Source: Candidatus Hadarchaeota archaeon | GTDB taxonomy: Archaea; Hadarchaeota; Hadarchaeia; Hadarchaeales; Hadarchaeaceae | Reading direction: 5' to 3' | Assembly (NCBI GenBank): GCA_964561735.1 | Contig: CAZLQN010000005.1 | Span: 1-23,120 of the forward strand | Length of the DNA stretch: 23,120 nucleotides | Part shown: positions 1,282 to 13,816 of the stretch, piece by piece | Layout of the letters: every line of letters begins with the position of its first letter | Numbering within the stretch: the stretch's first letter is position 1 | Translations under genes and position numbers: made by a program | The notes under the pieces: model-generated | Databases searched by the model: none | What the model was told of the DNA's origin: nothing | The model's input: only the letters and a program-made list of their open reading frames with translations

Positions 1282-1459
1282 GCATTGCGTGGTCTGCGGC
1301 AGGGCGATTGAGCCGGATAAATTTATCTGCTCTCCCGCCTGCGAAGAGGTGATGAAAAGATCCCAGAAGCAGGCGGCGCGGATGAGATTTCTGATGATAG
1401 GGATGTTTGTGGCGCTTTTCGTCGTACTAATGGTCGTGAGCTATTTGAGACAAAGTTAG
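1265..1459 (+). CDS. Small Zn-ribbon plus C-terminal transmembrane helix protein (DUF2116-like)
   Basis: 64 aa with CVVCG...CSPAC, then the hydrophobic stretch FLMIGMFVALFVVLMVV. Overlaps the pyrH stop, which suggests translational coupling. Confidence 0.6.
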   Translation: MVEDHKHCVVCGRAIEPDKFICSPACEEVMKRSQKQAARMRFLMIGMFVALFVVLMVVSYLRQS

Positions 1460-4177
1460 GACATCCCTATCAAAATTTTTAGTGCTGGTTCAGAGATATC
1501 AATTATTTCCACTTTATGTCCAGCGCTCGCCGTCTCTCTCACCACTCTGACGTCTTCTTTGTCGATGGTGAATTTTTTCCCGTTCACGGCGATAGTTAGA
1601 TCTCCAATCTCTAGTTTTCTTGCAACATCTTCTGGGTCGGCTTCTGAAATGGCGCGCAGCACAGCTTTCGCGTCGGAACGCAAGCGTGGCCCAATTTTAG
1701 CAAAGTTTGGTTCAATCGATAGGACTCGCTCGACAACCTTTGGTTTTTCCGTCGTCACCAGAAGTTCTCGAATCTTCATTGTGCCTCGTATGTCGTCTAT
1801 GGCTTGCTCGAGAAGTTTCGCATTTTTTTCATCTGCAGCATATATCTCGACAGAAGGCAACTCGGCGCTGAGCGCTATCCCTTTCTCCGACTTGAATTGA
1901 CGGATGGTGCTGACAACTAAATTTATGAGTTCTCCCAGCTTTTCTGCGGCTTCATCTATGAATCTATCGTCCGCGACGGGCCACTCGGAGAGGTGTATGC
2001 TTGGTTGAGTGTAATTCGAGGCAAAATAATTGTGATATATCTCTTCTGCGAAATGTGGAACGAATGGTGCGAGCAACTTTGCCGCCGTCAAGATAATTTT
2101 GTAGAGCGTGAATTTTGATGCTTCCGCGGTCAAGTCCTCGCCATAGAGGCGATGTTTTACCTCTTCGATGTACATGTCGCAGAACTCATGCCAGATAAAA
2201 GTTTGTACGGCGATCAACGCGCGGTTGAATTGAAAATCCTCCAAATATGCGGTGACTTCTTTGACCAGGCGATTCATCCTGCTCAATATCCATCTATCTG
2301 TCGGTCTAAACTCAAGTTTTGATGGATCGGCGGTTGTGATGTTTACACTTTCGAAATATGGACTAGCGAATCGCGCGGCGTTCCAAAACTTGCGCATGAA
2401 TTTGTAACCGAACTCGACGTCCTTCCAAGCGAATGGAATGTCGGAGCCAGTGGAAGCGCCTATCGCGGCCCACTGCCTCAATGCGTCGGCCCCGTATCTT
2501 TCTCGAGCTTTCGTGGTGTCGACGTAGTTGCCAAGAGATTTGTGCATCGCCCTTCCGTCCGCCCCCAAGACCATGCCATTGACCAGCACGGTTTTGTATG
2601 GAACCTCGCCGACCAACGCCAGAGTGCGGACGAGCAAGTAGTAATCCCAAGTTCTAATTATGTCGGTGCCGTTCGGTTGAAGATCGGCGGGAAAGAGTCG
2701 TTTGTCTAAATTTGGCCATCCAGCGTGCGCAAGTATTGTTAGAGAGCTGTCCATCCAAGTGTCGAGCACATCCATCTCTGGGACAAATTTATCGCCACTA
2801 CATTTTTGGCATTTTTTATGAGGTTCATCTTTCGATGGGTTCACCGGTAACTGATTTTCGTCTGCGACCACTGGAGAGCCGCACTTTGAACAATACCATA
2901 CAGGGATAGGGGTCGCAAAAATGCGCTGTCTCGATATCACCCAGTCCCAGTCCATCGCCTCGGCCCACGCTATGAGGCGGGCGCGCATGTGATCGGGGAC
3001 CCAGCGCGCGCGCATGGCGCCTTCTATCACATCCTCCTTGAGATCGAGGACGCGCATGAACCACTGCTTTTTTGTTAATATTTCGACAGGCGTCTTGCAG
3101 CGCCAGCATACGCCGACGCTCTGTTTGAGTTTTTCCTGTCCACTCAACAGCCCACTTGTCTTGATTTTTTTGAGCACGAGTTCTTTGCACTCGGCAAGCG
3201 AGAGCCCCACGTACTCTCCAGCGGCCTCGCTCATGCGGCCACGCTCGTCGATGGCTTTTATGACGGGCAGCTTGTAGCGCATGGCCCAGCGGACATCCGT
3301 CTTGTCGCCGTAGGTGCATATCATCACCACGCCGGTGCCGAACTGCGGGTCGACCTCGCGATCCTCTATGATTTCTACGATTCGACCGAATACCGGAACT
3401 TCGAGTTTTTTCCCGACATATTTTTTGTAGCGTTCGTCATCGGGGTGGACGGCCACTACGACGCAGGCGTGAAGATACTCCGGGCGCGTCGTTGCGATGG
3501 TCAGAAAATCGTCTTTTCCAACAATTTTGAACTTGATATAGTTCAGCGAGCTATCGCGGTCGTCGTACTCGACTTCGGCGTCGGCTATCGCCGTCTCACA
3601 TCTCGGGCACCAGTTGACCGGATGCTCGCCGCGGTAGATCAAGCCCTTGTTGTAGAGCTGAACGAATGAGAGTTGCGTCTTGCTGTAGTAGCTGGGGTCC
3701 ATCGTGCGGTATTCTGTCGACCAGTCCATCGAGAAGCCCAGCGAGTTCATCTCCTCGCGCATGTGGGCGATGTTCTCCTCGGTGAGCTTGATGCAGAGCT
3801 CGCGGAATTTTTCAGGAGGGAGGTCGCCTTTGCGGATGCCGTAGCGCTTCTCTACTTGTACTTCCGTCGGTAGACCGTGACAGTCCCATGCAGGCCCCAT
3901 GAAATATTTTCACAGAGTTCCCTGGGGAAACAACACGTTGAAGCCGCGCATCCGCTTGTAGCGTGCGACGATATCGAAGTATGTCCAGTTGAACGCCGTC
4001 CCCATGTGAAATTCTCCGCTCGGTTCCACCCTATTAGGAATATGGCGGCGGAGTGTCGATCACATAGGTTGGTGTTTTTGCATCTTCTTTCTTGAATCTA
4101 TATATGTCTAGCTCGCTCCATCGTTGTTGCCATTTTGGCTCTACTTCGAGCGGGTTGTAATCTTTCGGAACTTCCAT
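1456..4177 (-). CDS. valS: Valyl-tRNA synthetase, split into three exons 4177..4040, 4023..3919, 3888..1456 (46+35+810 = 891 aa after removal of two BHB mini-introns)
   Basis: Exon 1 reads [20 protein letters not shown]...[10 protein letters not shown]. Exon 2 reads [35 protein letters not shown]. Exon 3 reads [14 protein letters not shown]...TTRPEYLH...WVISRQR...MHKSLGN. The joined sequence matches the archaeal ValRS N-terminal pattern PPPYP(S/T)G.LH.G...[30 protein letters not shown] as I recall it. A GGAGGTG SD lies 8 nt upstream of the ATG at 4177..4175. Read unspliced, the frame hits TAA TAG at 4036..4031 and TGA inside 3889..3918. Confidence 0.85.
3889..3918 (-). other. Putative BHB mini-intron 2 of valS (30 nt)
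   Basis: All helices are read on the minus strand. Outer helix UCCC(3928-3925)/GGGA(3887-3884). Central 4-bp helix CAGG(3924-3921)/CCUG(3894-3891). 3-nt bulges GAA(3920-3918) and CAU(3890-3888). Inner 10-bp stem CUCUGUGAAA(3917-3908)/UUUCAUGGGG(3904-3895) with an AUA loop. Cutting after the second nt of each bulge joins ...CAG GGA|UGG GAC (QG|WD). The insert contains an in-frame TGA. Confidence 0.8.
4024..4039 (-). other. Putative BHB mini-intron 1 of valS (16 nt)
   Basis: Minus strand. Outer helix CUCCGC-CG(4053-4046)/CG-A-GCGGAG(4022-4014), 8 bp with one bulged A. Central helix CCAU(4045-4042)/GUGG(4029-4026). 3-nt bulges AUU(4041-4039) and AAC(4025-4023). Inner stem CCU/AGG with an AAU loop. 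Cutting after the second bulge nt removes UCCUAAUAGGGUGGAA (includes TAA TAG), corrects the +1 frame offset and gives PPPY|PSGEFHMG. Confidence 0.8.
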
Positions 4178-4180
4178 TTA
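4130..4180 (-). repeat. Direct repeat copy A: valS start region (TAA-ATG plus codons 1-16), attached to the valS body
   Basis: 51 nt, 45/51 identical to 6231..6281. 4130-4153 is a 24-nt perfectly identical core (codons 9-16, PLEVEPKW). 4171-4180 is also identical. The 6 mismatches all lie in 4154-4170. Confidence 0.9.
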
Positions 4181-6254
4181 TGCATACACCTCCTTGTTAG
4201 TTTTTACAGGTTATCTTATATCTCTGTATCCCATTTTAGTAATAACATATTTTGACAATATTGATTCTTTCGATTTTTTGATATATCGCCCTCTACTAAT
4301 TTTATGAATATATCCCCGGTCAGACATTTCTCGCAAAGCCACGATCGCTGGCATTGTCACTCGATTTGAATTAGGAACTTGGCTGCCACCTAGCCTCGTG
4401 GATATCATTGCCGCATCAACATACCCATGCTTTAGTTGAAGGTCATTAAGAATTGGCAGAATATATCGTTCATAGCGTAAGCATTGCTCAGCTGCTTTGT
4501 TGAGTGCGGCAGATTTTCTCGCGATTCGGAACCCAACTTTTCTGTTGTATTTAATCAAATTATCTGGACCACTAATACGGAGTTGCCATTTAGCCCGTAA
4601 TTTTCCATTAAGAGTTTGATAAATCTCTAGCGGGTGAACTGTAGAAGTTATGTTTAGCCTACTGAGAATCTTTTGTTCGTCGAGGATTATTTTTGGTGGA
4701 TGATCCGTGGCATATTTTTGAACACTGTCTTGCAAACGACTGAAGGTAATCCTTTCATTAGCTTCAAGCTCGATTTTGGGTAGAAGTCCAGTAATGTCAG
4801 TAGAGCGTCGCCAATAAATGCCGTATAAATTATGCTGTGGATGATAAACAACGTGCCCTTCATCATCTCCTGTTTGTTGGAGCCAAGCGATCCATATAGT
4901 TTCTTTTTCACTTTTCATCACAAACTCGGGAATGCCGTGATAACTCTCAGCTTTGGGGCTAGTCATCACTCCTACGATTAACAAAATATCACGCACAACA
5001 GTGGGATAAATCAGATAAGTGTCTTTGCTGAAATTAACTCTATATGTTTGAGCATTTCCTCCAAAAGCAGCGATTGCATCATCGATAGCGTTCTGTATTT
5101 GTTCTGGATCTTCTTTGGCAAAATAGATTAGCGATCCATAACCATGACGAGGCCCATAGCTTCTAGTTAGAATATCATCTCCACAGGCTCTAGCGGCTGT
5201 TCGCACGAATGCAGGGTGGTAAATGTCAACAGGCAGGTGAGGGTTATGTATCCCTCGCCCATGTTTTGGGCCTATCCATATCATGTGTTTTTGGGCAGCA
5301 TCCAGAGAAAACATTGGATTATACGTGTTCAAAAAATTTAACAATTTAATCAGTTTGTCTATTCTGATACGCCTACAATATTTGAGGTGATAGAAAATAC
5401 TTTTTGGATTGCCACATAATCTAGCGGCTTTGGTGAAATTATTACTCACCAGATTTTTTATTACATTACAGATCAATTGTACATATTGCTCTGATAATAC
5501 AACAAATGTTTGTTTCGGAGGCAGATCCCAGAAATTTATTGTGTGTAACAAACTTATCCCGCGTGGTCCTGTTAGACTGTATTTAAGCGTCTTTGGGGGA
5601 GGGAGAGGTCAGTGAAAGTAATATTTAAAATATCTTCTTTAGTACTTGTGGTAACTCAGTAAAACTATGAATTTCAAAATCAAAGTCATCGTTTGATTTT
5701 TCTCGAGCAAATTTAATTGTTTTGATACCTATCTCAGATGCCGGGCGAAGATTTTTTGACCTGTCGTCTACAAAAACACAGTCTAAAGGAGATGATTGGA
5801 TTCTATTTAACAGAACATTGTAAATTCTTTTGTCAGGTTTACGATATCCGACTTCTCCACTTACAACAACGATTTTGAATAGCCTGTTTAAACCGAATTT
5901 GGTGCATAGATAGTTAGACCATTCTTTCACATCATTACTCAATATCGCTAGAAAATAATTTTTTGTCAATGGTTTTGCAACCCCAATAAAATCAGGATCT
6001 ATCTCCAAGCACGTATCGAGATACTCTCTCTCAATTTCTAGATATTCGTCACCAAAGCCCAATTCTTTCCAGAAATCGAATGATGAAATCTCTCCTAAAC
6101 TTGCCCTTAAATACATTTCATTGATTTTCTCTGCAGAGATCATTTCATTTCTTTTTTGAATATATGGCACGAGTAAATCATTCACATCATCTGTAACTTT
6201 GAAAATGACGCCCATCATATCTAGAATAACCCATTTTGGCTCTACTTCGAGCGG
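4154..6254 (-). mobile_element. About 2.1-kb AT-rich insertion inside the 5' end of valS (two genes), bounded by the valS-start direct repeats; ends ambiguous within the 24-nt core
   Basis: Base composition shifts sharply to AT-rich between about 4181 and 6230. Imperfect 51-nt direct repeats with a perfect 24-nt core flank it. The cargo is unrelated to neighbouring housekeeping genes. No recognisable tyrosine or serine recombinase is present. Confidence 0.6.
4211..5551 (-). CDS. Hypothetical protein with an apparent double LAGLIDADG-like core flanked by an N-terminal HTH-like and a C-terminal winged-helix-like region (candidate homing-endonuclease relative)
   Basis: A 446-aa ORF in AT-rich DNA is unlikely to arise by chance. 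Two LAGLIDADG-position motifs are FVRTAARACGDDILT and IWIAWLQQTGDDEGHV. The second is preceded by K....GIPEFVMKSEKE. A typical post-core signature follows: LRISGPDNLIKYNRKVGFRIARKSAALNKA. The C-terminus AIVALREMSDRGYIHKISRGRYIKK looks like a winged helix. The start is TTG in the track, so the true start is uncertain. The family call comes from motif reading only. Confidence 0.45.
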   Translation of the reverse strand: MLHTINFWDLPPKQTFVVLSEQYVQLICNVIKNLVSNNFTKAARLCGNPKSIFYHLKYCRRIRIDKLIKLLNFLNTYNPMFSLDAAQKHMIWIGPKHGRGIHNPHLPVDIYHPAFVRTAARACGDDILTRSYGPRHGYGSLIYFAKEDPEQIQNAIDDAIAAFGGNAQTYRVNFSKDTYLIYPTVVRDILLIVGVMTSPKAESYHGIPEFVMKSEKETIWIAWLQQTGDDEGHVVYHPQHNLYGIYWRRSTDITGLLPKIELEANERITFSRLQDSVQKYATDHPPKIILDEQKILSRLNITSTVHPLEIYQTLNGKLRAKWQLRISGPDNLIKYNRKVGFRIARKSAALNKAAEQCLRYERYILPILNDLQLKHGYVDAAMISTRLGGSQVPNSNRVTMPAIVALREMSDRGYIHKISRGRYIKKSKESILSKYVITKMGYRDIR

Positions 6255-6278
6255 ATCGTAATCCTTTGAGACTTCCAT
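5625..6278 (-). CDS. HAD-superfamily hydrolase (subfamily IA-like) whose first 16 codons are a copy of the valS N-terminus
   Basis: Motif I ILDMMGV (nucleophile Asp present, Asp+2 replaced by Met). Motif II LAILSND. Motif III YRKPDKRIY. Motif IV VFVDDRSKNL. N-terminus [16 protein letters not shown] equals repeat copy B. Confidence 0.8.
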   Translation of the reverse strand: MEVSKDYDPLEVEPKWVILDMMGVIFKVTDDVNDLLVPYIQKRNEMISAEKINEMYLRASLGEISSFDFWKELGFGDEYLEIEREYLDTCLEIDPDFIGVAKPLTKNYFLAILSNDVKEWSNYLCTKFGLNRLFKIVVVSGEVGYRKPDKRIYNVLLNRIQSSPLDCVFVDDRSKNLRPASEIGIKTIKFAREKSNDDFDFEIHSFTELPQVLKKIF

Positions 6279-6281
6279 TTA
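6231..6281 (-). repeat. Direct repeat copy B: displaced valS start region, now the first 16 codons of the HAD ORF
   Basis: Encodes [16 protein letters not shown] versus [16 protein letters not shown] in copy A. It is followed by G+C-rich backbone sequence on its promoter side (6282-6340). Confidence 0.9.
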
Positions 6282-6340
6282 AACCAACCAAGAATCAGGG
6301 GCCGAAAGGAAAACATCGATTAGATCGCGTGGAGATTGTT

Positions 6341-7195
6341 CTATTTTTTCCTTGCCTTCTTCACGGCCCGCATGTATTTTTTTACTCTAGATATATCGAC
6401 AGGATTTTCGTTCACCCCACCTTTTTTCAGGTCCGTCCCGACGATGATCCCGTCGGCATATTTTAGAAAATCTTTGACATTTGCAGCAGTGGTGCCGCTC
6501 CCAACGAGCACCGGCGTGTCCCCAGCAAATTCTTTGGCCTTCTTGACTTTCTCCAGCTCGGGAGCCCAACCAGTCAATTTTCCGCTGACGATGAGCGCGT
6601 CGGCGAGATATCGTTCGGTCCACAGTATATGTGTTTCCAAATCGATGCCGGGGAAAGGCACTGAATGTTTTTTGTCGACATCGGCGAAGATCTTGATGTG
6701 TTCAGCCCCCAAGTGTTTTCTCAACCTCAACAGTTCTGCAGCGCAACCGTGGTCAAATTCACCCGTGTCCCAGACCCTTGCTCCCGCCAAAAGACAAATC
6801 CGAACGAATTTCGCTCCAGAAGCAACCGCGATGGATAGCGTCACCTTTCCACCGTTGTGGATGACGTTTATCCCCGTTGGAAGGTTGGTGTTTTTGATTA
6901 CTTCCCTCGCCACGACGGCTTGTGCAGTCATCTCCTCTGGTGGCACATCCTCTCCGACGTAGTACGGATGGTCCCACATGTTCTCTACCATCAGCCCGTC
7001 AACGCCGCCCTCCTCGAGATTTTTCGCGTCGGCAAGAGCTTTCTCGATGATGGTATCCATGCCATAAAAATCGTAGCCTGGTGCGCCTGGCAAGGGTATC
7101 AGGTGGACCATCCCTACTATCGGTTTATCCACCGCGAAAATTTCTTGCAAATTTTTCATTTTCACATTATCCATTTTTTCTTTCCACTCCACCAT
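6341..7195 (-). CDS. BtpA/SgcQ-family TIM-barrel protein
   Basis: 284 aa. GMVHLIPLPGAPGY near the N-terminus and an alternating beta/alpha pattern ending in VLVGSGTT...GIIVGT, as in the BtpA family. A GGGGTG SD lies upstream. Confidence 0.75.
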   Translation of the reverse strand: MVEWKEKMDNVKMKNLQEIFAVDKPIVGMVHLIPLPGAPGYDFYGMDTIIEKALADAKNLEEGGVDGLMVENMWDHPYYVGEDVPPEEMTAQAVVAREVIKNTNLPTGINVIHNGGKVTLSIAVASGAKFVRICLLAGARVWDTGEFDHGCAAELLRLRKHLGAEHIKIFADVDKKHSVPFPGIDLETHILWTERYLADALIVSGKLTGWAPELEKVKKAKEFAGDTPVLVGSGTTAANVKDFLKYADGIIVGTDLKKGGVNENPVDISRVKKYMRAVKKARKK

Positions 7196-7265
7196 GTAGA
7201 AACACCCCTTTGTTTTTCATAGTGTGATAGAGTAATAAATTTGTTGTTAGATTCAACTCGTGACT

Positions 7266-8117
7266 TCATTCAACGTTGGCGAAACTTTCTGGTTTTGGTC
7301 GCGCGAACGCCTCCAAGCCGGGCTGCTTGGCCGGGCGCTTCACCTTTATTTCTTTGTCGATGTTTACGCGCAGGCCGGCGTATCCAGGAGTCGTCTGGAC
7401 ACCGGTCTCCTCTTTTATCCGAGCCGCCTCCTTCTCAGGACTGTGCTTGAGGAAGAGCATACCCATGTGCATCATGACCGCCAGCTCCGGCTTCACCTCC
7501 TTCAAAAGCGAGATGAGGTCATCCGAGCAGAGGTGCCACTTGATGCGCATCGCCAGAGGCCTCGTGACGTTTGCTATCAGGATCCTGGAGTTTTTGAAAT
7601 TTTTCGCAAGTCCATAGAAATATTGCGTGTCTCCAGTGTAGCCGATTATCCCATCTTTCGTGTGAATCTTCAATCCAAACGCCGTCGGGTCGCTGTGTTG
7701 CGCTGGTGTAGCTTCAAGCTCGAGTTCATTGAGCTTGTAGGTTGTTCCTGGTTTCATATGGATGATCTCCGCTGGTTTTTCTTTGTGATAGTTTGAGATC
7801 GCTGGACCAAATTTTCCCATTCCTTTGAGCACGCTTTCGCTCCCCACGAATGCGCCGCGCTTCTTCGTCATGTGTTGGGTCATGGCTTCGATGAGCACCT
7901 CGGCATCGCAGTAGTGGTCGGGGTGGCAGTGGGTGACGACTACGCAATCGAGGTCAAGTGGACTCAGGCCGTGCTGGTGCGTGAGGAGGAGCGCTCCTGG
8001 GCCGGGGTCGACGTGTATCCTTGCGGTGTCATGAATTCGAAATCCTCCCGTGTTGAAAATTTGATCGATGGTCATGTAGCGCCCGCCGCCGCATCCCAGA
8101 AACACGAGTTCTACCAC
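7266..8117 (-). CDS. MBL-fold metallo-hydrolase
   Basis: 283 aa with VVVTHCHPDHYCD (the HxHxDH motif), plus downstream His/Asp ligand positions. GTG start with a GGTGA SD. Confidence 0.85.
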   Translation of the reverse strand: MVELVFLGCGGGRYMTIDQIFNTGGFRIHDTARIHVDPGPGALLLTHQHGLSPLDLDCVVVTHCHPDHYCDAEVLIEAMTQHMTKKRGAFVGSESVLKGMGKFGPAISNYHKEKPAEIIHMKPGTTYKLNELELEATPAQHSDPTAFGLKIHTKDGIIGYTGDTQYFYGLAKNFKNSRILIANVTRPLAMRIKWHLCSDDLISLLKEVKPELAVMMHMGMLFLKHSPEKEAARIKEETGVQTTPGYAGLRVNIDKEIKVKRPAKQPGLEAFARPKPESFANVE

Positions 8118-8148
8118 GTTGTCACCGCAAGAAGTTAATTGGTAATAT

Positions 8149-8883
8149 CTATCTCCGATTTTCCCTTACGTAACCGATTATTGCGTTATCAATTAATTTT
8201 GGTATAGAAGTGGTGAAATTTTCTTTATTTTTTCTTTTCCAATAAATAGTTTCAATGCGATCTACTTTTTTACAGATCAAATAGAATCCATCAAATACTT
8301 CTAAAAACATGTCTTTCTGCTTTTCTTCTGATTTTGGTATGTAGAGTTCCTTGACGAATTTTTCTTTATAAAAGAAATTTATGGTATGTCTTCTGTCTAT
8401 GGGTGGAATTAAATCAGGCAAGAGATGATGTAGTGTTTTAGAATTTCCAACTAATTTAGGTCTTTCCATTACTTCTGGATTTTTAGTTTCTTTTTTCATT
8501 ATTTCTAAATTTTCAAAGAGGTTTGATAAAGTTGGTTTTATTTTTTCCTTGTCATTATCATCTAATTCATGTAATTTAAATTTAGTTAATTTTTCTAACG
8601 TATCTATATTACTTCGGATATTTTGTTTAAAATTTTCAAAATCTTCTAATAACGCACTTTTAGTCATCCTGTGCATACCCCAAGAGGCCAAAGTAGCGTA
8701 GATACGTTCGATAAACATATCCTCTTTTTCCAATAATTCTCGATAATCTTTTGTGTTTCGAATCATGTAAAGAACTCTTCCATGAAAATAGACACTTGGA
8801 CCAGAAAAAGGATTTTTATAATATTTATCGACGAAAGACTCAAACTTCTTTGTTAATTTTTCGATTCTAGTTTCAACGTTCAT
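8149..8883 (-). CDS. Hypothetical protein (single gene of an AT-rich island)
   Basis: 244-aa ORF in strongly AT-rich DNA, Lys/Glu/Asn-rich. I cannot name a family. The conserved-looking segment is VGNSKTLHHLLPDLIPPIDRRHT. Confidence 0.65.
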   Translation of the reverse strand: MNVETRIEKLTKKFESFVDKYYKNPFSGPSVYFHGRVLYMIRNTKDYRELLEKEDMFIERIYATLASWGMHRMTKSALLEDFENFKQNIRSNIDTLEKLTKFKLHELDDNDKEKIKPTLSNLFENLEIMKKETKNPEVMERPKLVGNSKTLHHLLPDLIPPIDRRHTINFFYKEKFVKELYIPKSEEKQKDMFLEVFDGFYLICKKVDRIETIYWKRKNKENFTTSIPKLIDNAIIGYVRENRR

Positions 8884-8958
8884 AATTCTCGTTCATAACT
8901 ATAGACTCACAACCTTAAGTTAATTTTAATCCTGCGTTTTTTGTGCACAAAGTTCAAA

Positions 8959-9969
8959 CTAACGCCTGAGCTTCGGCAAGGGTTGGTCGAGCTTTTTTAG
9001 ACCCTTCTTCGCGTCGACGATGAGCTTCTTCAGGACCTCCTTCGCTTTCTCGTCCTTCGTCACCTTCAGCGAGTTCCTGGCAAATTTTACCACATCCTCC
9101 AAGTGGCGCTCGGGCTTGAAATTGCGGTCCCCCCAGTCGAAGATCGCGCAGATGTTGCCGGGCAGGAAGCCTGTATCGTAGTCGCCGTATGTCATGGTGA
9201 CGCGCTTTTTTGTCTCCTCGGGCAACATCGCTTCGCCAGCCTTTCTGAAGAGTAGATCGGTGCCGTTGTCCGCCAGACCGAAGAGGCCCTCGGCGACGAA
9301 GAGGTGGATGTCGAAATCCGGCCACCACTCGCGGAACCGTTTCTCCCACTCGAGCAGCTTGGTGCAGCCCTTGTAAGAGGCGGCGATGCTGAAGACGAGC
9401 AATTTTTGAACATCGTAGTCCCGTTCCCTGAGCTCGCTGCGCGTCGCTGCCAACGTCTGACTGAGCGAAACGCCTGTGGCTATTGTGTCGCCCGTGAAAA
9501 GGACGCCGTGTTCTGGGAGCGCATCGAAATTCGTGTAGAAGATGTAGGCGCCGAACTCGCCCCCGGAGATCCTGAATCGCCTAGCGCCGACGAAGCAGCG
9601 GGGCAGGTAACTGTTGAAGAGCTGCTCGAACGCCTGATCGAAGCCGTAGCCCAAGCTCCCGCGCAACACCACGATTTCGCTGATGTCGCGGGTGCTCAGC
9701 TTCTTCAGCCCAGGCAAGGTGTTCCAAGCAACCTTCAAAAAAGTCTTGCTGCATTCGAGCGCGAGGTCCCGAAGTTCCATGCCGCAGACCGTCGGATCGT
9801 ACAAAATTTTTCTGGCCGGGGGCATGCACACGATGTGGGTGTTCTTCGGCAATTGGAGATGTTCGACCTTGTAAATGCTGGAGCCGGCCACCGTCCCGAT
9901 CTTTTTTGGATTGGTCACGCGAGCACCGTTGAATTTTCTCATCACATCTATTAAAGTTCGCCAGCTCAC
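8959..9969 (-). CDS. Uracil-phosphoribosyltransferase-like (type I PRT fold) protein, divergent
   Basis: 336 aa. VVLRGSLGYG, ARRFRI, a PRPP-loop-like VLFTGDTIATGVSLSQTL, and C-terminal LPGNICAIFDWGDRNF parallel the UPRTase blocks ILRAG / RDE / DPMLATGGS / PGLGDAGDR. It is longer than canonical Upp. Confidence 0.55.
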   Translation of the reverse strand: MSWRTLIDVMRKFNGARVTNPKKIGTVAGSSIYKVEHLQLPKNTHIVCMPPARKILYDPTVCGMELRDLALECSKTFLKVAWNTLPGLKKLSTRDISEIVVLRGSLGYGFDQAFEQLFNSYLPRCFVGARRFRISGGEFGAYIFYTNFDALPEHGVLFTGDTIATGVSLSQTLAATRSELRERDYDVQKLLVFSIAASYKGCTKLLEWEKRFREWWPDFDIHLFVAEGLFGLADNGTDLLFRKAGEAMLPEETKKRVTMTYGDYDTGFLPGNICAIFDWGDRNFKPERHLEDVVKFARNSLKVTKDEKAKEVLKKLIVDAKKGLKKLDQPLPKLRR

Positions 9970-10193
9970 GCAACTATCATAGATGTTTCCGTGTTTCTGA
10001 TTCCGGGAATGGCTTGGATCTTGCCGACGACCTTATCGCCTATATCCTTCAGATCGGCCGCTTCGACCCTCACGACTATGTCAAATCTTCCCGTTGTCGC
10101 GGCGGCGAATTTTACCCCAGGTAGCTTTTTGACCTCATCTAAAATCTTTAGCGCCTTACCAGGGTCGGTGCGGATGTACACGATTGCTTGCAT
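9966..10193 (-). CDS. Stand-alone Lrp/AsnC-type ligand-binding (RAM) domain protein
   Basis: 75 aa. MQAIVYIRT...VKKLPGVKFAAATTGRFDIVVRVEA.DLKDIGDKV..KIQAIPGIRNTETSMIV matches the beta-alpha-beta-beta-alpha-beta RAM domain pattern. No HTH is present. Its stop overlaps the start of 8959..9969 by 4 nt. Confidence 0.75.
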   Translation of the reverse strand: MQAIVYIRTDPGKALKILDEVKKLPGVKFAAATTGRFDIVVRVEAADLKDIGDKVVGKIQAIPGIRNTETSMIVA

Positions 10194-10212
10194 TTTCCAG
10201 CCTCCTCAGTTT

Positions 10213-10288
10213 TGGTGGACCGGGCGGGATTTGAACCCGCGACCTCTCGCTTGCGAAGCGAGCGTTCATGCCACTGAACTACCGGCCC
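10213..10288 (-). tRNA. tRNA-Ala (anticodon CGC), genome-encoded CCA
   Basis: Reverse strand: GGGCCGG UA GUUC AGUGGCAU GAAC G CUCGC UUCGCAA GCGAG AGGUC GCGGG UUCAAAU CCCGC CCGGUCC A CCA. Full cloverleaf of 76 nt. The G3:U70 alanine identity pair is present. Confidence 0.95.
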
Positions 10289-10317
10289 CAAGCTAATGTT
10301 TGTTTTTCAGTTAAAAA

Positions 10318-11373
10318 CTACTCCTTCCACTTGAATAATAGAAATCCAAGGATGAGGAAAAACAGAGCGAAGCCGGCCAAAACTGCGAGCGAGGGCACTA
10401 TATCGAGTAGACCTTTGCCACGGACAATCACGTCTTGGAAGGCGTTCATGGCGTGGGTGGTTGGGAATATCCGTGCGACGCTCTGCATAAATCCTGGCAT
10501 GATTTCGATCGGGAACCATAGCCCTCCAAGCGCGGCGGCTGGAAATGTGAAGGCCTGCACAGCCCCGCTGGCTGCGTCCGGGGAGCGCGCGAACGTCGAT
10601 ATCAGGAGCCCGAGTCCAACGCCAAATACGATCACGATGGCGCTGATCAATGCTAAAAGTAGATAGCTACCTGCCACTGGCATGCCGAACACGAGGATTC
10701 CGACCCCGAAGAACACCATCGTCTGCATACATCCGATGGCAAATCCACTCAGGAGCTCCCCGCCCAGAAAACTCGGCTTGCTGATCGGCGTGAGGAGGTT
10801 GCGTTTGAACGTGCCAGTTTTTCGCTCTAGGACGATCCTAGTCGATGCGCCTATCCCACCTACCATCAATATCATCATTATCCCCATCCCAGGGACGTAC
10901 TGTTGGGCCGCGTTCCATTCCTTGTACCCGCCCCGGACGCTCTCTGTGGTGATTGGCGCCCCCATTCCGAAAAATTGTTGGGTGACTCCTTCGACTATTT
11001 GCACGGCCGTGGTCGCCAACTCCCCGCGGGTTTCATCGTAGATGAACCGTGCATTTTCGGCGCCAGCGCTAAATCCGCTCGGGACGATCAGCACGCCCAC
11101 ATCTTTGCCATCTAGCACCCTAGCCTCGGCCTCCGCGACGTTTTCGAGCTTCTCAATATTGAAGACGTTTTCAAGCACGGATATGTAGGTGTTGGCCAGC
11201 TGGCCGTTGTCCTGCTGAACTGCGAGTATATTTATCCGAACGCTACCTCGACCACTGAACGCCAAGCTGAAGACCATGATGAGCAGTAGAGGAAACGCGA
11301 ATGTCCAGAACAGACCCATCCGATCCCTAAAGAAGAGGCGCAAGTTTTTGTCCGCGATCGTCAAGGACTTCAT
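10318..11373 (-). CDS. ABC-2 type transporter permease
   Basis: 351 aa. An N-terminal TM helix, a large extracytoplasmic loop, then 5 C-terminal TM helices. Lies immediately downstream of the ATPase gene (1-nt gap). Confidence 0.85.
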   Translation of the reverse strand: MKSLTIADKNLRLFFRDRMGLFWTFAFPLLLIMVFSLAFSGRGSVRINILAVQQDNGQLANTYISVLENVFNIEKLENVAEAEARVLDGKDVGVLIVPSGFSAGAENARFIYDETRGELATTAVQIVEGVTQQFFGMGAPITTESVRGGYKEWNAAQQYVPGMGIMMILMVGGIGASTRIVLERKTGTFKRNLLTPISKPSFLGGELLSGFAIGCMQTMVFFGVGILVFGMPVAGSYLLLALISAIVIVFGVGLGLLISTFARSPDAASGAVQAFTFPAAALGGLWFPIEIMPGFMQSVARIFPTTHAMNAFQDVIVRGKGLLDIVPSLAVLAGFALFFLILGFLLFKWKE

Positions 11374-11374
11374 C

Positions 11375-12310
11375 CTAATCCCTCAGAGTTTTACCAGTCA
11401 ATTTTATGAACACGTCCTCGAGCGTCGGTTGAGCGATGTGTAGCGAGTCTATCGAAACGCCAACATCGGTCACCGCCCTGACGACTTGGCTGAGCACGCT
11501 ATCGGCGGATGGCGTGAACAATCTCAAGCCCTCCGGCGAGCGAACCACTTTCTTGACGCCCCGAAGCTTTTTCAGCTCGACCATCAGCTTGCGCGGAACT
11601 TTCACGGCCTTGAGCTCGATAGTTTCGAGCTTGCCCATGGAATGCTTGAGCGCATCCGGCTTGTCGAGGGCAATGATCTTGCCGTTATCCATGACGGCGA
11701 CTCGGTCGCAGAGATAATCTGCTTCGTCCATGTAATGCGTGGTCAGCAAAATCGTAACTCCCTTCGATTGGAACCGCTTGATGATTTCCCAAACGGCTAG
11801 CCGCGCTTGAGGGTCGAAGCCGGTCGTCGGCTCGTCCAGAAAGAGCACCTTTGGCATGTGGACAAGTCCGACAGCCAGGTTGAGGCGGCGTTTCATGCCA
11901 CCAGAGAAGGTCTTGACGCGGTCGTTTGCTCTATCTTTGATCTGCACCATCACAAGTAGCTCATCGATCCACTTTCGAAGTTTTTTACCCTCTACACCTT
12001 GAAGCTTCCCGAAGTATGCCAGGTTCTCCGCGGCGGTCAGATCGTCATATACCCCAGCCTCCTGAGTCACGACCCCAATTATCTGACGAACCTCCTTGGG
12101 CTGTTTCTTTATGTCGTATCCGCCGACGATTGCTGTGCCTTCGGTTGGGGGCAGAATTGTTGAGAGCATGGCCACCGTCGTGCTCTTGCCGGCTCCATTT
12201 GGGCCAAGTAGGCCGAAGAGCTCGCCCTCTTCGATGGTCAAGTTCATGTTGTTGACGGCTTTTCTACCATCGAACATTTTCGACAGGCTTCTGGTTTCAA
12301 CTATGGACAT
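11375..12310 (-). CDS. ABC transporter ATP-binding protein (ABC-2/DrrA-like exporter subunit)
   Basis: Walker A GPNGAGKST, Q-loop, signature FSGGMKRRL, Walker B VLFLDEPTTGFD, H-loop TTHYMDEA. Confidence 0.9.
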   Translation of the reverse strand: MSIVETRSLSKMFDGRKAVNNMNLTIEEGELFGLLGPNGAGKSTTVAMLSTILPPTEGTAIVGGYDIKKQPKEVRQIIGVVTQEAGVYDDLTAAENLAYFGKLQGVEGKKLRKWIDELLVMVQIKDRANDRVKTFSGGMKRRLNLAVGLVHMPKVLFLDEPTTGFDPQARLAVWEIIKRFQSKGVTILLTTHYMDEADYLCDRVAVMDNGKIIALDKPDALKHSMGKLETIELKAVKVPRKLMVELKKLRGVKKVVRSPEGLRLFTPSADSVLSQVVRAVTDVGVSIDSLHIAQPTLEDVFIKLTGKTLRD

Positions 12311-12511
12311 AACAATCTACTCGCAGATTTACTGTACATGCTCTTAAAAATTTAACCATAGCCAAGCCTTCGCTGGGCAGGTGAACCGTTTGGCATATAA
12401 ACCCCCTCGTTCAGATAAAATAGGATACTGAGAGGCTTCAACGGAAGCCGTTCAAGAGGGGCAGCCAAGCTGTTTCTTTTGAGATGTATCCTAAAAATAG
12501 GAGTGTATAAA

Positions 12512-12682
12512 ATGGAACCAAGACGTTTCGGCCGCAGGGAAGGCTTCCAGCGCGAGATGCATAAGGCTACCTGCTCCGACTGTGGAGCGGAGACGGAAGT
12601 CCCCTTCAAGCCGACCGAAGGAAGACCTATATATTGTAGGGAATGCTTCCAGAAGCGCAGACCCGCGAGACCCCGATACTGA
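12512..12682 (+). CDS. Small Arg-rich CxxC...CxxC zinc-ribbon protein
   Basis: MEPRRFGRREGFQREMHKATCSDCGAETEVPFKPTEGRPIYCRECFQKRRPARPRY. ATG at 12512 lies 8 nt after GGAG (12500-12503). The longer track start at 12479 lacks an SD. Confidence 0.7.
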   Translation: MEPRRFGRREGFQREMHKATCSDCGAETEVPFKPTEGRPIYCRECFQKRRPARPRY

Positions 12683-12783
12683 AGGCTTTTAATTGGGCCT
12701 AATTCTGGGCTGTTCGCTCGGGCTAGCGGTAGCTTTCTTGCGGCCTCAGAAAAAATTCAAGTGTGGTAGTCAATTCATAGCGG

Positions 12784-12802
12784 GGGCTCGTAGCTCAGCT
12801 TG
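12784..12802 (+). repeat. Orphan copy of the first 19 nt of tRNA-Ile (acceptor 5' strand plus D-arm start)
   Basis: GGGCTCGTAGCTCAGCTTG versus GGGCCCGTAGCTCAGCTTG at 13724-13742 (18/19). Same orientation. Similarity stops abruptly on both sides. The AT-rich sequence begins at 12803. Confidence 0.75.
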
Positions 12803-13723
12803 TTTTTTCTTTAAGCAGACAATTTCCTGTAGAATGATGGTTTTACAAATTGCCGAGCCCAACGTTGCCCTCCGTATATCAATAAGTAAAGATCAACTAT
12901 TGATGGTTTCAAGTTTCTGTTAACACAATATTTCTGTATGATTTTAACTACCTTCAAAAGATTCCGTTCACCTTTTTTCGATTCTACTATCCCAATCTCT
13001 TTTGAAACTTTCATGACTATTGTATCTGGTTTTATACAATCGTACCCGATATGCAAAAGGAAATGTAGTAAACTTGTCGTGTTACTAAAAAAGGCATGTC
13101 CATATTTATTAGTTCCTTTTTCAGATAGTTGAATCCTTGCCAGAAATTTTCAATATCAGATTCCTCTTTTAGGATAGTTGGTATTTTTGAAGTTTTGAGT
13201 AAATTTAGAAAAGAACCGTATTTTGATTTGATTAGCTGAAGTGTTTTTGCGCAGTAAACAATAGATTCAAGTTTTCGCGGAAATCTAATAGCTTTGATTT
13301 CTTCCCAATGAAGATTCTTTAGCTCATCAGGATCCAGTTGAGCAACTCTATCGACTTGAAAACCATGAAAAATGCGTTCAAATATTCCTTTGTTGAGCAT
13401 ATTAGATATCAAGTCAGATCGTGTATTTTGGCTGAATGCTATCAATCTAGCAAGTCGCCTTAAGACATCATCATCGTTTCGAATCACGTTGGGGGTTCTT
13501 TTCATACGCTCCTTAATTTCCTCTGAAAATTCTGGCTCTCTTCTTAAGGGATTAACTTTTTCAATGATTTGATCTATTGAACTAAATATTCGTTCAATTT
13601 CCATAGAGATGTATCCTCCCCAATTTTGGCATTTTATCCAACCACCACTTGAATTACACACCGCAGAATTTGAACTTGATTGTTGAGGGAGTATCATTTA
13701 AATTTCTGAGGACATGTTTAGTT
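12803..13723. mobile_element. About 0.9-kb AT-rich cassette inserted at the 5' end of tRNA-Ile, bounded by 19-nt direct repeats (no recombinase; probably a remnant)
   Basis: Composition shift, flanking direct repeats 12784-12802 and 13724-13742, and a single frameshifted cargo gene. A TTTAAAT TATA-like box at about 13697-13703 inside the cassette sits about 24 nt upstream of tRNA position 1. Confidence 0.55.
12811..13604 (-). pseudogene. DNA-3-methyladenine glycosylase I (Tag)-like HhH protein, interrupted by a frameshift (ORFs 13032..13697 and 12811..13056)
   Basis: Block-wise resemblance to E. coli Tag, recalled from memory. DDDVLRRLARLIAFSQ..., FHGFQVDRVAQLDPDELKNL...IKAIRFPRKLESIVYCAKTLQLIKSKYGSFLNLL is in one frame. 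GHAFFSNTTSLLHFLLHIGYDCIKPD is in the -1 frame (compare Tag GFKFVGTTICYSFMQACGLVNDH). The second frame opens only after the TGA at 13152-13150. The likely true start is the ATG at 13604, preceded by GGAGGAT. Confidence 0.5.
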
Positions 13724-13816
13724 GGGCCCGTAGCTCAGCTTGGCTGGAGCGCTCGGCTGATAACCAGTTGGGCAGCCACCGGGAGGTCCTGGGTTCAAAT
13801 CCCAGCGGGCCCACCA
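13724..13816 (+). tRNA. tRNA-Ile (anticodon GAU) with a 15-nt intron at canonical position 37/38 (13763..13777); genome-encoded CCA
   Basis: GGGCCCG UA GCUC AGCUUGGCUG GAGC G CUCGG CUGAUA[ACCAGUUGGGCAGCC]A CCGGG AGGUC CUGGG UUCAAAU CCCAG CGGGCCC A CCA. The intron forms a relaxed BHB: CUG/CAG pairing of the anticodon region with the intron, and bulges UAA and CCA. Confidence 0.9.

Follow-up and report, generated by a model that had tools for sequence, protein, structure and literature searches.

How does a gene of the translation apparatus come to stand behind a stretch of AT-rich foreign DNA, with a second copy of its own first nucleotides on the far side of that stretch? The question is raised twice by the window analyzed here, 23,120 nucleotides (nt) of a Candidatus Hadarchaeota archaeon (contig CAZLQN010000005.1), once at the gene valS and once at the gene for tRNA-Ile. 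The window is contig C5 of the genome G000 (GCA_964561735.1), a 1.08-Mb archaeal metagenome assembly in 195 contigs; the organisms named for close homologues of its proteins place it in Hadarchaeaceae. A reading made from the sequence alone (the sequence-only reading) had attributed both cases to one family of elements, or to one recombinase or endonuclease acting in trans, directed at the 5' ends of genes and stabilized in an addiction-like manner. Both insertions are confirmed and recent, and a single 5'-end-targeting family is not supported. As the best explanation, we consider it somewhat probable that two mobile-DNA mechanisms have left one scar: island 1, upstream of valS, would be a homing-endonuclease cassette, and island 3, upstream of tRNA-Ile, a remnant or satellite of an integrase-type element. 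The shared “5'-end capture” is a common outcome and not the mark of one new element family; the same topology would result from any insertion that has to leave an essential gene intact.

Three AT-rich islands are found in the window, island 1 at about 4190-6230, island 2 at 8128-8950, and island 3 at 12803-13723. The GC content between the repeats is 0.30 to 0.42, compared with a genome mean of 0.51. The valS locus is laid out as follows.

1456..4177, minus strand: valS in three exons, its reading frame interrupted by two bulge-helix-bulge (BHB) mini-introns
3889..3918, minus strand: BHB mini-intron 2, 30 nt, in the coding stretch FPQG/WDCHG (from folding and the uninterrupted frame of relatives)
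4024..4039, minus strand: BHB mini-intron 1, 16 nt, in the coding stretch PPPY/PSGEF (same basis)
4130..4180, minus strand: proximal copy of a 51-nt repeat, the 5' end of the functional valS (from repeat comparison)
4211..5551, minus strand: free-standing LAGLIDADG_3-type homing-endonuclease-like gene, 446 amino acids (aa), with a helix-turn-helix (HTH), two LAGLIDADG domains, and a winged helix
5599..5630, minus strand: promoter-like module, TTTAAAT plus ATTACTTTCNNTGNCCTCTC..., 47 nt before the endonuclease start
5625..6278, minus strand: cargo open reading frame (ORF) of a HAD-family hydrolase, 217 aa, with the start codon of the valS stub
6231..6281, minus strand: distal copy of the 51-nt repeat, the displaced native 5' stub of valS, fused in frame to the HAD-family ORF
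6295..6310, minus strand: place where a deletion (about 26 nt) took away the native valS TATA region (from alignment; the region is present in G001 and L034, described below)

The two copies of the repeat are 88% identical and comprise codons 1 to 16 of valS plus 3 nt upstream. The sequence-only reading was right that this repeat, and a 19-nt repeat at tRNA-Ile (18 of 19 positions identical), bracket AT-rich DNA. The order of native 5' stub, foreign DNA, and intact gene is real at both genes, and both stubs, including the distal valS copy, keep their native upstream DNA. It had also proposed to look for presence/absence polymorphism among relatives, and both sites are indeed empty in the sister genome G001, which shares about 90 to 95% nucleotide identity with the window in the flanks. 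In G001 (contig C55), BtpA is contiguous with the valS start, and the island and both valS inserts are absent. L034, an independently assembled ENA contig (k141_584584) from a related strain, is 87 to 91% identical to the window and has the order stub, cargo, endonuclease gene, valS; its stub matches the 5' end of valS over 90 nt. The recurrence of this order in an independent assembly excludes a mis-assembly. In L034, an M48 peptidase gene occupies the place of the HAD-family cargo. In G050, a degenerate valS stub sits between a metallo-β-lactamase (MBL) gene and the endonuclease gene. The stub junction is not a fixed att-like site: it lies after nt 48 of valS in the window and after about nt 81-87 in L034, with other cargo. 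The HAD-family ORF (5625-6278) has no start codon of its own, and D-M-M-G-V replaces the DxDG(T/V) nucleophile motif (motif I). This cargo may be inactive or decaying. A transposon or insertion sequence was considered for the islands and rejected: terminal inverted repeats are absent at every island end, the repeats (19, 51, and 90 nt) are imperfect and too long for a target-site duplication, and no transposase domain is present.

The 446-aa protein alone has no Pfam match. Its family includes about 120 cluster representatives, and homologues are found in 10 of the 46 genomes of the archaeal family. In an alignment of 42 members, the consensus holds two LAGLIDADG-type motifs, ...DG.I and FDDEG. 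The window protein has ...CGDD with D125 as motif 1 and GDDEG with E231 as motif 2, so that both acidic residues are kept, and D125, D230, and G232 are invariant or nearly so across the alignment. PF14528 is matched by 19 of the 42 members, the window protein not among them, and the family profile matches the intein endonucleases 7qsu (E-value 1.3e-7), 1dq3, and 2cw7. The AlphaFold2 model of the protein (pLDDT 89.5) shows an N-terminal HTH, a double LAGLIDADG domain with the pseudo-dimeric alpha-beta-beta-alpha-beta-beta-alpha core, and a C-terminal winged helix; its top Foldseek matches include the TliVMA intein endonuclease, PI-PkoII, PI-PfuI, and PI-SceI (probability 1.00), and I-DmoI is matched at 0.99. 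By its motifs, family profile, and modeled fold, the ORF is a free-standing LAGLIDADG homing-endonuclease-type gene. The statement that neither island carries an integrase holds in that no integrase domain was found in either, but island 1 does carry this LAGLIDADG-type gene. With a nuclease gene of its own, island 1 does not need the trans-acting recombinase that had been postulated for it.

The valS genes of relatives are continuous across the insert sites (...FPQGWDCHGLP). In both inserts of the window, the minimum-free-energy fold is a helix, a 3-nt bulge, a 4-bp helix, a 3-nt bulge, and a helix (canonical hBHBh'), and a cut after the second bulge nucleotide restores the valS reading frame. 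All five valS genes that have a family endonuclease gene directly upstream (G000, G016, G050, G039, and L034) carry at least one BHB intron at the same sites. Those outside the window are as follows.

L034: endonuclease 87% identical to that of the window; valS intron 2 only
G016: endonuclease 73% identical; both valS introns
G050: endonuclease 68% identical; both valS introns
G039: endonuclease 34% identical; valS intron 1 only

The uninterrupted valS genes of the nine relatives inspected (L003-L008 and L010-L012) have neither an intron nor an endonuclease neighbor. When valS is spliced in silico and compared among G000, G001, and the endonuclease-bearing alleles, 59 sites match the endonuclease-bearing alleles but not G001, and 16 of these fall in nt 99-243, a tract that spans both intron sites and for which about 3 of the 59 would be expected from the overall density (our own arithmetic). 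Beyond nt 258, valS is G001-like, with 88 to 98% identity per window of the comparison. A mosaic in nt 99-243 is the pattern expected from co-conversion of exon sequence together with the cassette, suggesting that this tract is imported and brought both BHB mini-introns with it.

We propose that such cassettes spread by gene-end replacement, in which the endonuclease gene travels together with a foreign version of the adjacent gene's end. A break in the resident gene would lead to repair that copies in the cassette together with the foreign end and pushes the resident end aside as a nonfunctional stub. At valS, it is the 5' end that would have been imported, along with the ribosome-binding site and the two BHB mini-introns. 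These introns probably interrupt the recognition sites of the endonuclease and might confer immunity, as in collaborative homing. Extra cargo, such as the HAD gene in the window and the peptidase gene in L034, would ride between the stub and the endonuclease gene.

In its present position, valS follows the endonuclease gene and the module that precedes that gene. The spacer from the endonuclease stop to the valS start is 33 nt long, contains a Shine-Dalgarno-like GGAGGTG at about 4186-4192, and lacks a T-run. Upstream of the stub, the deleted stretch contains CCTATTTTATATG in G001 and L034, and with the native TATA region gone, recombination between the repeats would no longer restore a normally promoted valS. 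The sequence-only reading had held that element DNA drives both host genes and that this dependence stabilizes the elements like an addiction. Island DNA, including the module at valS, does now lie upstream of the genes, and a promoter takeover by element DNA is plausible. The lock-in through the deletion stands as well, but L034 still has the TATA box, so that its loss is secondary decay and no part of the insertion mechanism. The lock-in would then be a ratchet by decay, not a designed addiction. A scan for bacterial-type promoters and terminators is not meaningful for an archaeon.

Free-standing LAGLIDADG-type genes are not confined to valS. G000 encodes at least nine of them (GC 0.36 to 0.45), each with the promoter-like module (TTTAAAT followed by ATTACTTTCGGTGACCTCTC...) 44 to 81 nt before its start. 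Of eight complete cassettes, five are flanked on one side by an intact gene end and on the other by the displaced stub of that end.

C5: valS, 5' end, stub of 48-51 nt
C41: tRNA-Val, 3' end, stub of 17 nt
C152: tRNA-Leu with intron, 3' end, stub of 36 nt
C7: gene of 316 aa, 3' end, stub of at least 42 codons, 76% aa identity
C19: gene of 344 aa, 3' end, stub of 46 codons, 52% aa identity

For each of the five, G001, G002, or both have an empty site. At C41 and C152, the order is full tRNA, module, endonuclease gene, 3' stub. At C7, the stub is identical to G001 in 129 of 142 positions (90.8%) and the in-gene end in only 91 of 142 (64.1%); the stub, being far closer to G001, is native, and the expressed end is imported. 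Since four of the five stubs are at 3' ends, a 3':5' ratio of 4:1, 5' ends are not the rule as targets of these cassettes, contrary to what had been supposed. The host gene of one cassette was read by eye as deoxyhypusine-synthase-like.

Similar arrangements occur in relatives. G033 has a tRNA-Ile gene with an intron, next to it an endonuclease gene of the family, and then a 31-nt 3' stub. In L034 (161-1100, corresponding to window 10213-10288), the native intron-less tRNA-Ala(CGC) is replaced by an inverted unit that consists of a 257-aa LAGLIDADG gene and a tRNA-Ala that contains an intron of 11 nt; the stop codon of the LAGLIDADG gene falls within the first 20 nt of this tRNA.

The promoter-like module, TTTAAAT plus ATTACTTTCGGTGACCTCTCTCTCC, about 5 nt, and AAATCGCTTAAAA, is present in 21 copies in G000, always 20 to 100 nt before a start codon. 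Nine of the 21 copies belong to LAGLIDADG-type genes; the others stand in front of several TnpB-like genes, RadA, and a few unknown genes. A TTACACGTGTAA palindrome comes before three of the copies. The module could be the operator of a shared regulon or a mobile promoter. Its copies are located as follows.

Window, 5599-5630, minus strand
C7, C11, C13, C16, C18 (2 copies), C19, C23, C33, C41, and C48
C56, C68, C85, C135, C137, C144, C152, C158, and C193

The tRNA-Ile locus presents a different picture; its features, together with island 2, are listed here.

12784..12802, plus strand: native tRNA-Ile 5' stub, 19 nt, with native upstream DNA attached and a T-run (12803-12809) after it
12803..13723, minus strand: island 3, 921 nt, with a truncated, probably frameshifted, bacterial-type Tag-like (Adenine_glyco) gene at 13032-13697 plus 12811-13056
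13724..13816, plus strand: functional tRNA-Ile(GAU), interrupted by an intron of 16 nt at about 13766-13781; two compensatory pairs distinguish its T-stem from that of G001
8128..8950, minus strand: island 2, AT-rich, with a single orphan ORF (8149-8883) and neither a flanking repeat nor an endonuclease remnant

The repeat at tRNA-Ile (12784-12802 and 13724-13742) scores 30.2 bits, compared with at most 22.3 in shuffles. In G001 (contig C131), an intact, intronless tRNA-Ile lies exactly at the position of the stub. The Tag-like fragments are the sole coding content of island 3, and this cargo has no homologue in 45 genomes of the archaeal family. Its nearest relatives are 53 to 62% identical and 265 to 283 aa long, and one of them sits among genes for YbeY, RemA, guanylate kinase, and EPSP synthase, a bacterial-looking context. 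A TTTAAAT box is found in island 3 about 19 to 27 nt before the intact tRNA-Ile; neither an integrase nor the promoter-like module is present within the island. When 11 endonuclease proteins were compared by tblastn with island 2, island 3, and the HAD segment, the best match had E=0.56, and the idea of endonuclease remnants there was rejected. Across the family loci L044-L073, tRNA-Ile(GAU) falls into three length classes, 77-78, 91-94, and 108-109 nt, which from the gene lengths indicates repeated intron gain and loss or change of intron size.

Archaeal and bacterial integrative elements at tRNA genes carry integrases, and integrase-less remnants of them exist, for example, islands of the tycheposon type. 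Island 3 resembles such elements in being bracketed by a short direct repeat of part of a tRNA, and its cargo-only form fits decay; G000 also has integrase genes beside tRNA genes. Unlike the usual elements, island 3 duplicates the 5' 19-20 nt of the tRNA and not its 3' half, and it lacks an integrase; a mechanism of this kind also cannot explain island 1. G000 encodes two tyrosine integrases (C56 and C178). The one on C178 (459-1889), of 466 aa, is encoded divergently from a tRNA-Pro, with about 60 nt between it and the tRNA 5' end; this tRNA is a second copy of tRNA-Pro(GGG) and is cut by the contig end. On C109 (41-60), a 20-nt tRNA-Pro 5' stub is followed by AT-rich ORFs, and this stub and that of tRNA-Ile break off at one and the same point of the D-loop (GCTTGG). 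Relatives of the C178 integrase adjoin tRNAs, including tRNA-Ile, in G041 and G037. An element that integrated into the 5' end of a tRNA gene may have one of its ends on C178 and the other on C109. A joining of the C109 stub to the tRNA-Pro locus on C33 was tried and rejected, as the upstream regions do not match. The shared endpoint of the two stubs and the integrase adjoining the 5' end of tRNA-Pro make an integrase-type origin of island 3 the likelier one, with the integrase lost or acting in trans. The island would be a remnant of a tyrosine-integrase element, or a satellite mobilized in trans by one, with the first 19 to 20 nt of the tRNA gene as attachment site. A recombinase encoded elsewhere in the genome, as postulated by the sequence-only reading, is a good explanation for this island only.

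Island 2, which recurs in L034 with about 78% identity, stands outside the pattern. It had been noted to lack a convincing duplication, and no flanking repeat above the shuffle level is found there.

The main rival for island 3 is a decayed endonuclease cassette. Both islands would then come from homing endonucleases, that of island 3 having been lost, replaced, or supplied in trans by one of the roughly nine others, and the intron-bearing tRNA-Ile would be immune. Several observations point this way. The tRNA-Ile of G033 with its linked endonuclease gene and the tRNA-Ala unit of L034 provide precedents, the tRNA-Ile of the window combines an intron with compensatory T-stem changes relative to G001, and the tRNA-Ile intron is patchy across the family. 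Cargo can also sit between a stub and an endonuclease gene, and loss of the latter would leave a scar like that of island 3. However, neither an endonuclease remnant nor the module is present in the island, the intron occurs in G002 where there is no island, and a stub of 19 nt is short for homology-driven repair. The endpoint shared with the tRNA-Pro stub points to a site-specific enzyme instead. All in all, we regard a homing origin of both islands as doubtful.

Further gene-end duplications bear on the remaining alternatives. A genome-wide scan tested 18 AT-rich islands for flanking repeats (the left edge of island 1 fell outside its GC threshold), and only the tRNA-Ile island exceeded the shuffles. 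A general repeat scan revealed further gene-end duplications on C31, C63, C20, C89, C112, C93, and C154. On C31 (L038:1-5200), the 5' region of the gene for replication protein A (RPA) is present in three copies (1-199, 1938-2008, and 3140-3338), with AbiEi/AbiEii genes and a Fic gene between them; G001:C51 lacks the Fic segment together with its RPA fragment (about 1771-2964). On C63 (39-265 and 1008-1234), a glycosyltransferase gene has its first 227 nt duplicated around a retropepsin-like ORF, and this case, with no match in G001 or G002, is uninformative. On C20 (1575-1667 and 3407-3499), 93 nt of an OTCase-like 5' region flank a glutamate dehydrogenase gene, and on C89 (1331-1454 and 3441-3564), the 124-nt 3' end of ilvC is duplicated around an ORF of 627 aa. 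C112 (541-577 and 1728-1764) has tRNA-Leu(CAA), archaeal ATPase cargo, and a 37-nt 3' stub, and C93 (578-602 and 1261-1285) has tRNA-Glu(UUC), a membrane-protein cargo gene, and a 25-nt 3' stub; neither unit includes an integrase or endonuclease gene. Gene-end duplications around integrase-less cargo are common in G000, at both ends of genes. The genome contains 29 tRNA genes according to ARAGORN and 34 according to Rfam. At least eight extra copies of a 24-nt tRNA-Leu-like 3' end (C72, C88, C101, C105, C112, C133, C143, and C151) are either stubs or tRNAs with noncanonical introns missed by both tools.

A single family, or a single enzyme acting in trans on the 5' ends of translation genes, would account for the same topology of two islands 7 kb apart, for the absence of an integrase from both in a genome that encodes two tyrosine integrases elsewhere, for the loss of the native valS TATA region, and for the further 5' duplications at the RPA, glycosyltransferase, and OTCase-like genes. 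However, islands 1 and 3 have no protein, module, or end sequence in common, and island 1 has its own nuclease gene. Nor do the repeats share a single identical core: they are 19, 51, and 90 nt long with scattered mismatches, and the valS junction shifts between the window and L034. With 3' stubs at least as common as 5' ones and the promoter loss secondary, as L034 indicates, we consider this explanation, including the evolved addiction, unlikely.

Homology-facilitated illegitimate recombination anchored in conserved genes would dispense with a dedicated enzyme altogether, make the stubs by-products of the entry of foreign DNA, and reduce the endonuclease gene to mere cargo. The mixed nature of the cargo (HAD, M48, Tag, Fic, AbiE, and ATPase genes), the variable stub lengths, and the mosaic valS agree with it. 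It is hard to reconcile with the five of eight complete cassettes that carry a stub and in which the module abuts the end of the intact tRNA or gene, and with the strict co-occurrence of endonuclease genes and valS introns, and the scan of AT-rich islands found no further repeat-flanked islands that lack endonuclease genes. This makes the proposal quite improbable. An artefact of assembly, or a chimera formed when strains were assembled together, is conceivable for 195 metagenome contigs with 6.4% contamination but can be dismissed almost entirely, as a separately assembled ENA contig of 67.5 kb and three Logan contigs have the same topology, the repeats at 88% identity leave no room for a collapse or mis-join, and the flanks of the islands are collinear with G001 and G002.

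The combination of a homing-endonuclease cassette at valS and an integrase-type remnant at tRNA-Ile has its own difficulties, and the following points weigh against it. Three cassettes, on C23, C158, and C33, have no detectable stub. The third Foldseek match of the 446-aa protein is WhiA, a non-nuclease regulator with the same LAGLIDADG-plus-HTH build. Intron content is uncoupled in detail, as L034 has intron 2 only and G039 intron 1 only despite the endonuclease gene. In nt 1-87 of valS, neither of the two copies, stub or functional, stands out as the G001-like one, and the foreign signal rests on nt 99-243. G002 carries the tRNA-Ile intron without any island. The integrase of the C178 relatives is usually on the 3' side of the tRNA, and the C109 stub and the C178 integrase could not be linked as two ends of one element. 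Finally, the G000 assembly is incomplete, metagenome-derived, and contaminated to the extent given above.

Among known systems, the closest parallels to the valS cassette are the mobile ORFs (mORFs) of fungal mitochondria, which make gene hybrids, as in Glomus atp6, atp9, cox2, and nad3 (PMC3630166). For Allomyces macrogynus, an atp6 hybrid is credited in that paper to Paquin et al. 1994 (as cited in PMC3630166). As in mORFs, an endonuclease ORF lies inside the terminal part of a gene, the foreign end is expressed, and the native end is displaced as a stub; the stub resembles a close relative, as the C7 values illustrate, and there are relatives with an empty site. The duplicated gene end characteristic of mORFs is seen at valS, C41, C152, C7, and C19, and a demonstrably native stub at C7. 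In contrast to mORFs, the hadarchaeal cassettes reside on an archaeal chromosome and have tRNAs among their targets, and at the valS 5' end, initiation of transcription and translation would also be taken over. Their endonuclease has an HTH and a winged helix, and the conserved module, the extra cargo, and the BHB introns in the imported segment are likewise foreign to mORFs.

The second parallel is collaborative homing in phages, exemplified by T4 mobE with the nrdB intron (PMC2790892) and by F-CphI with the cyanophage psbA intron (PMC6083498). Here as there, a free-standing endonuclease gene stands beside a gene with an endonuclease-less intron, intron-less alleles lack the endonuclease gene, and the flanking exon is co-converted. 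Unlike the phage introns, which are group I ribozymes, those found here are protein-spliced BHB mini-introns of 16 to 41 nt, and the enzyme is of the LAGLIDADG type rather than HNH or Endo VII. By analogy with these phages, we infer that the endonuclease might cleave at the valS intron insertion site, with the intron providing immunity. A BHB intron in a protein-coding sequence, with patchy gain and loss, is known from the cbf5 pre-mRNA of Crenarchaeota (PMC2738675). The valS case differs in its host gene, in having two introns, in its occurrence in Hadarchaeaceae, and in the physical linkage of the introns to an endonuclease gene.

These comparisons lead to a tentative proposal, which we consider possible though by no means established: hadarchaeal LAGLIDADG cassettes with their own promoter-like module replace the ends of essential genes (tRNAs, valS, and the deoxyhypusine-synthase-like gene), replacement at a 5' end captures transcription, and the BHB introns, both those of tRNAs and the mini-introns of mRNA, serve as a traveling immunity device. 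For genome annotation, stubs, split valS frames, and “orphan” AT-rich islands in such genomes are better taken as traces of these cassettes than as pseudogenes or errors. The architecture of gene-end replacement, known from fungal mitochondria, is found in archaeal chromosomes too, and at a 5' end it would rewire how an essential gene is expressed. The movement of BHB introns among archaeal genes and genomes is a long-standing puzzle. If true, the proposal would provide a DNA-level mechanism for the patchy gain of these introns, including the rare protein-coding ones. The intron-bearing valS, tRNA-Ala, and tRNA-Ile genes that lie beside endonuclease genes, together with the empty sister sites, make such a homing-type mechanism directly testable.

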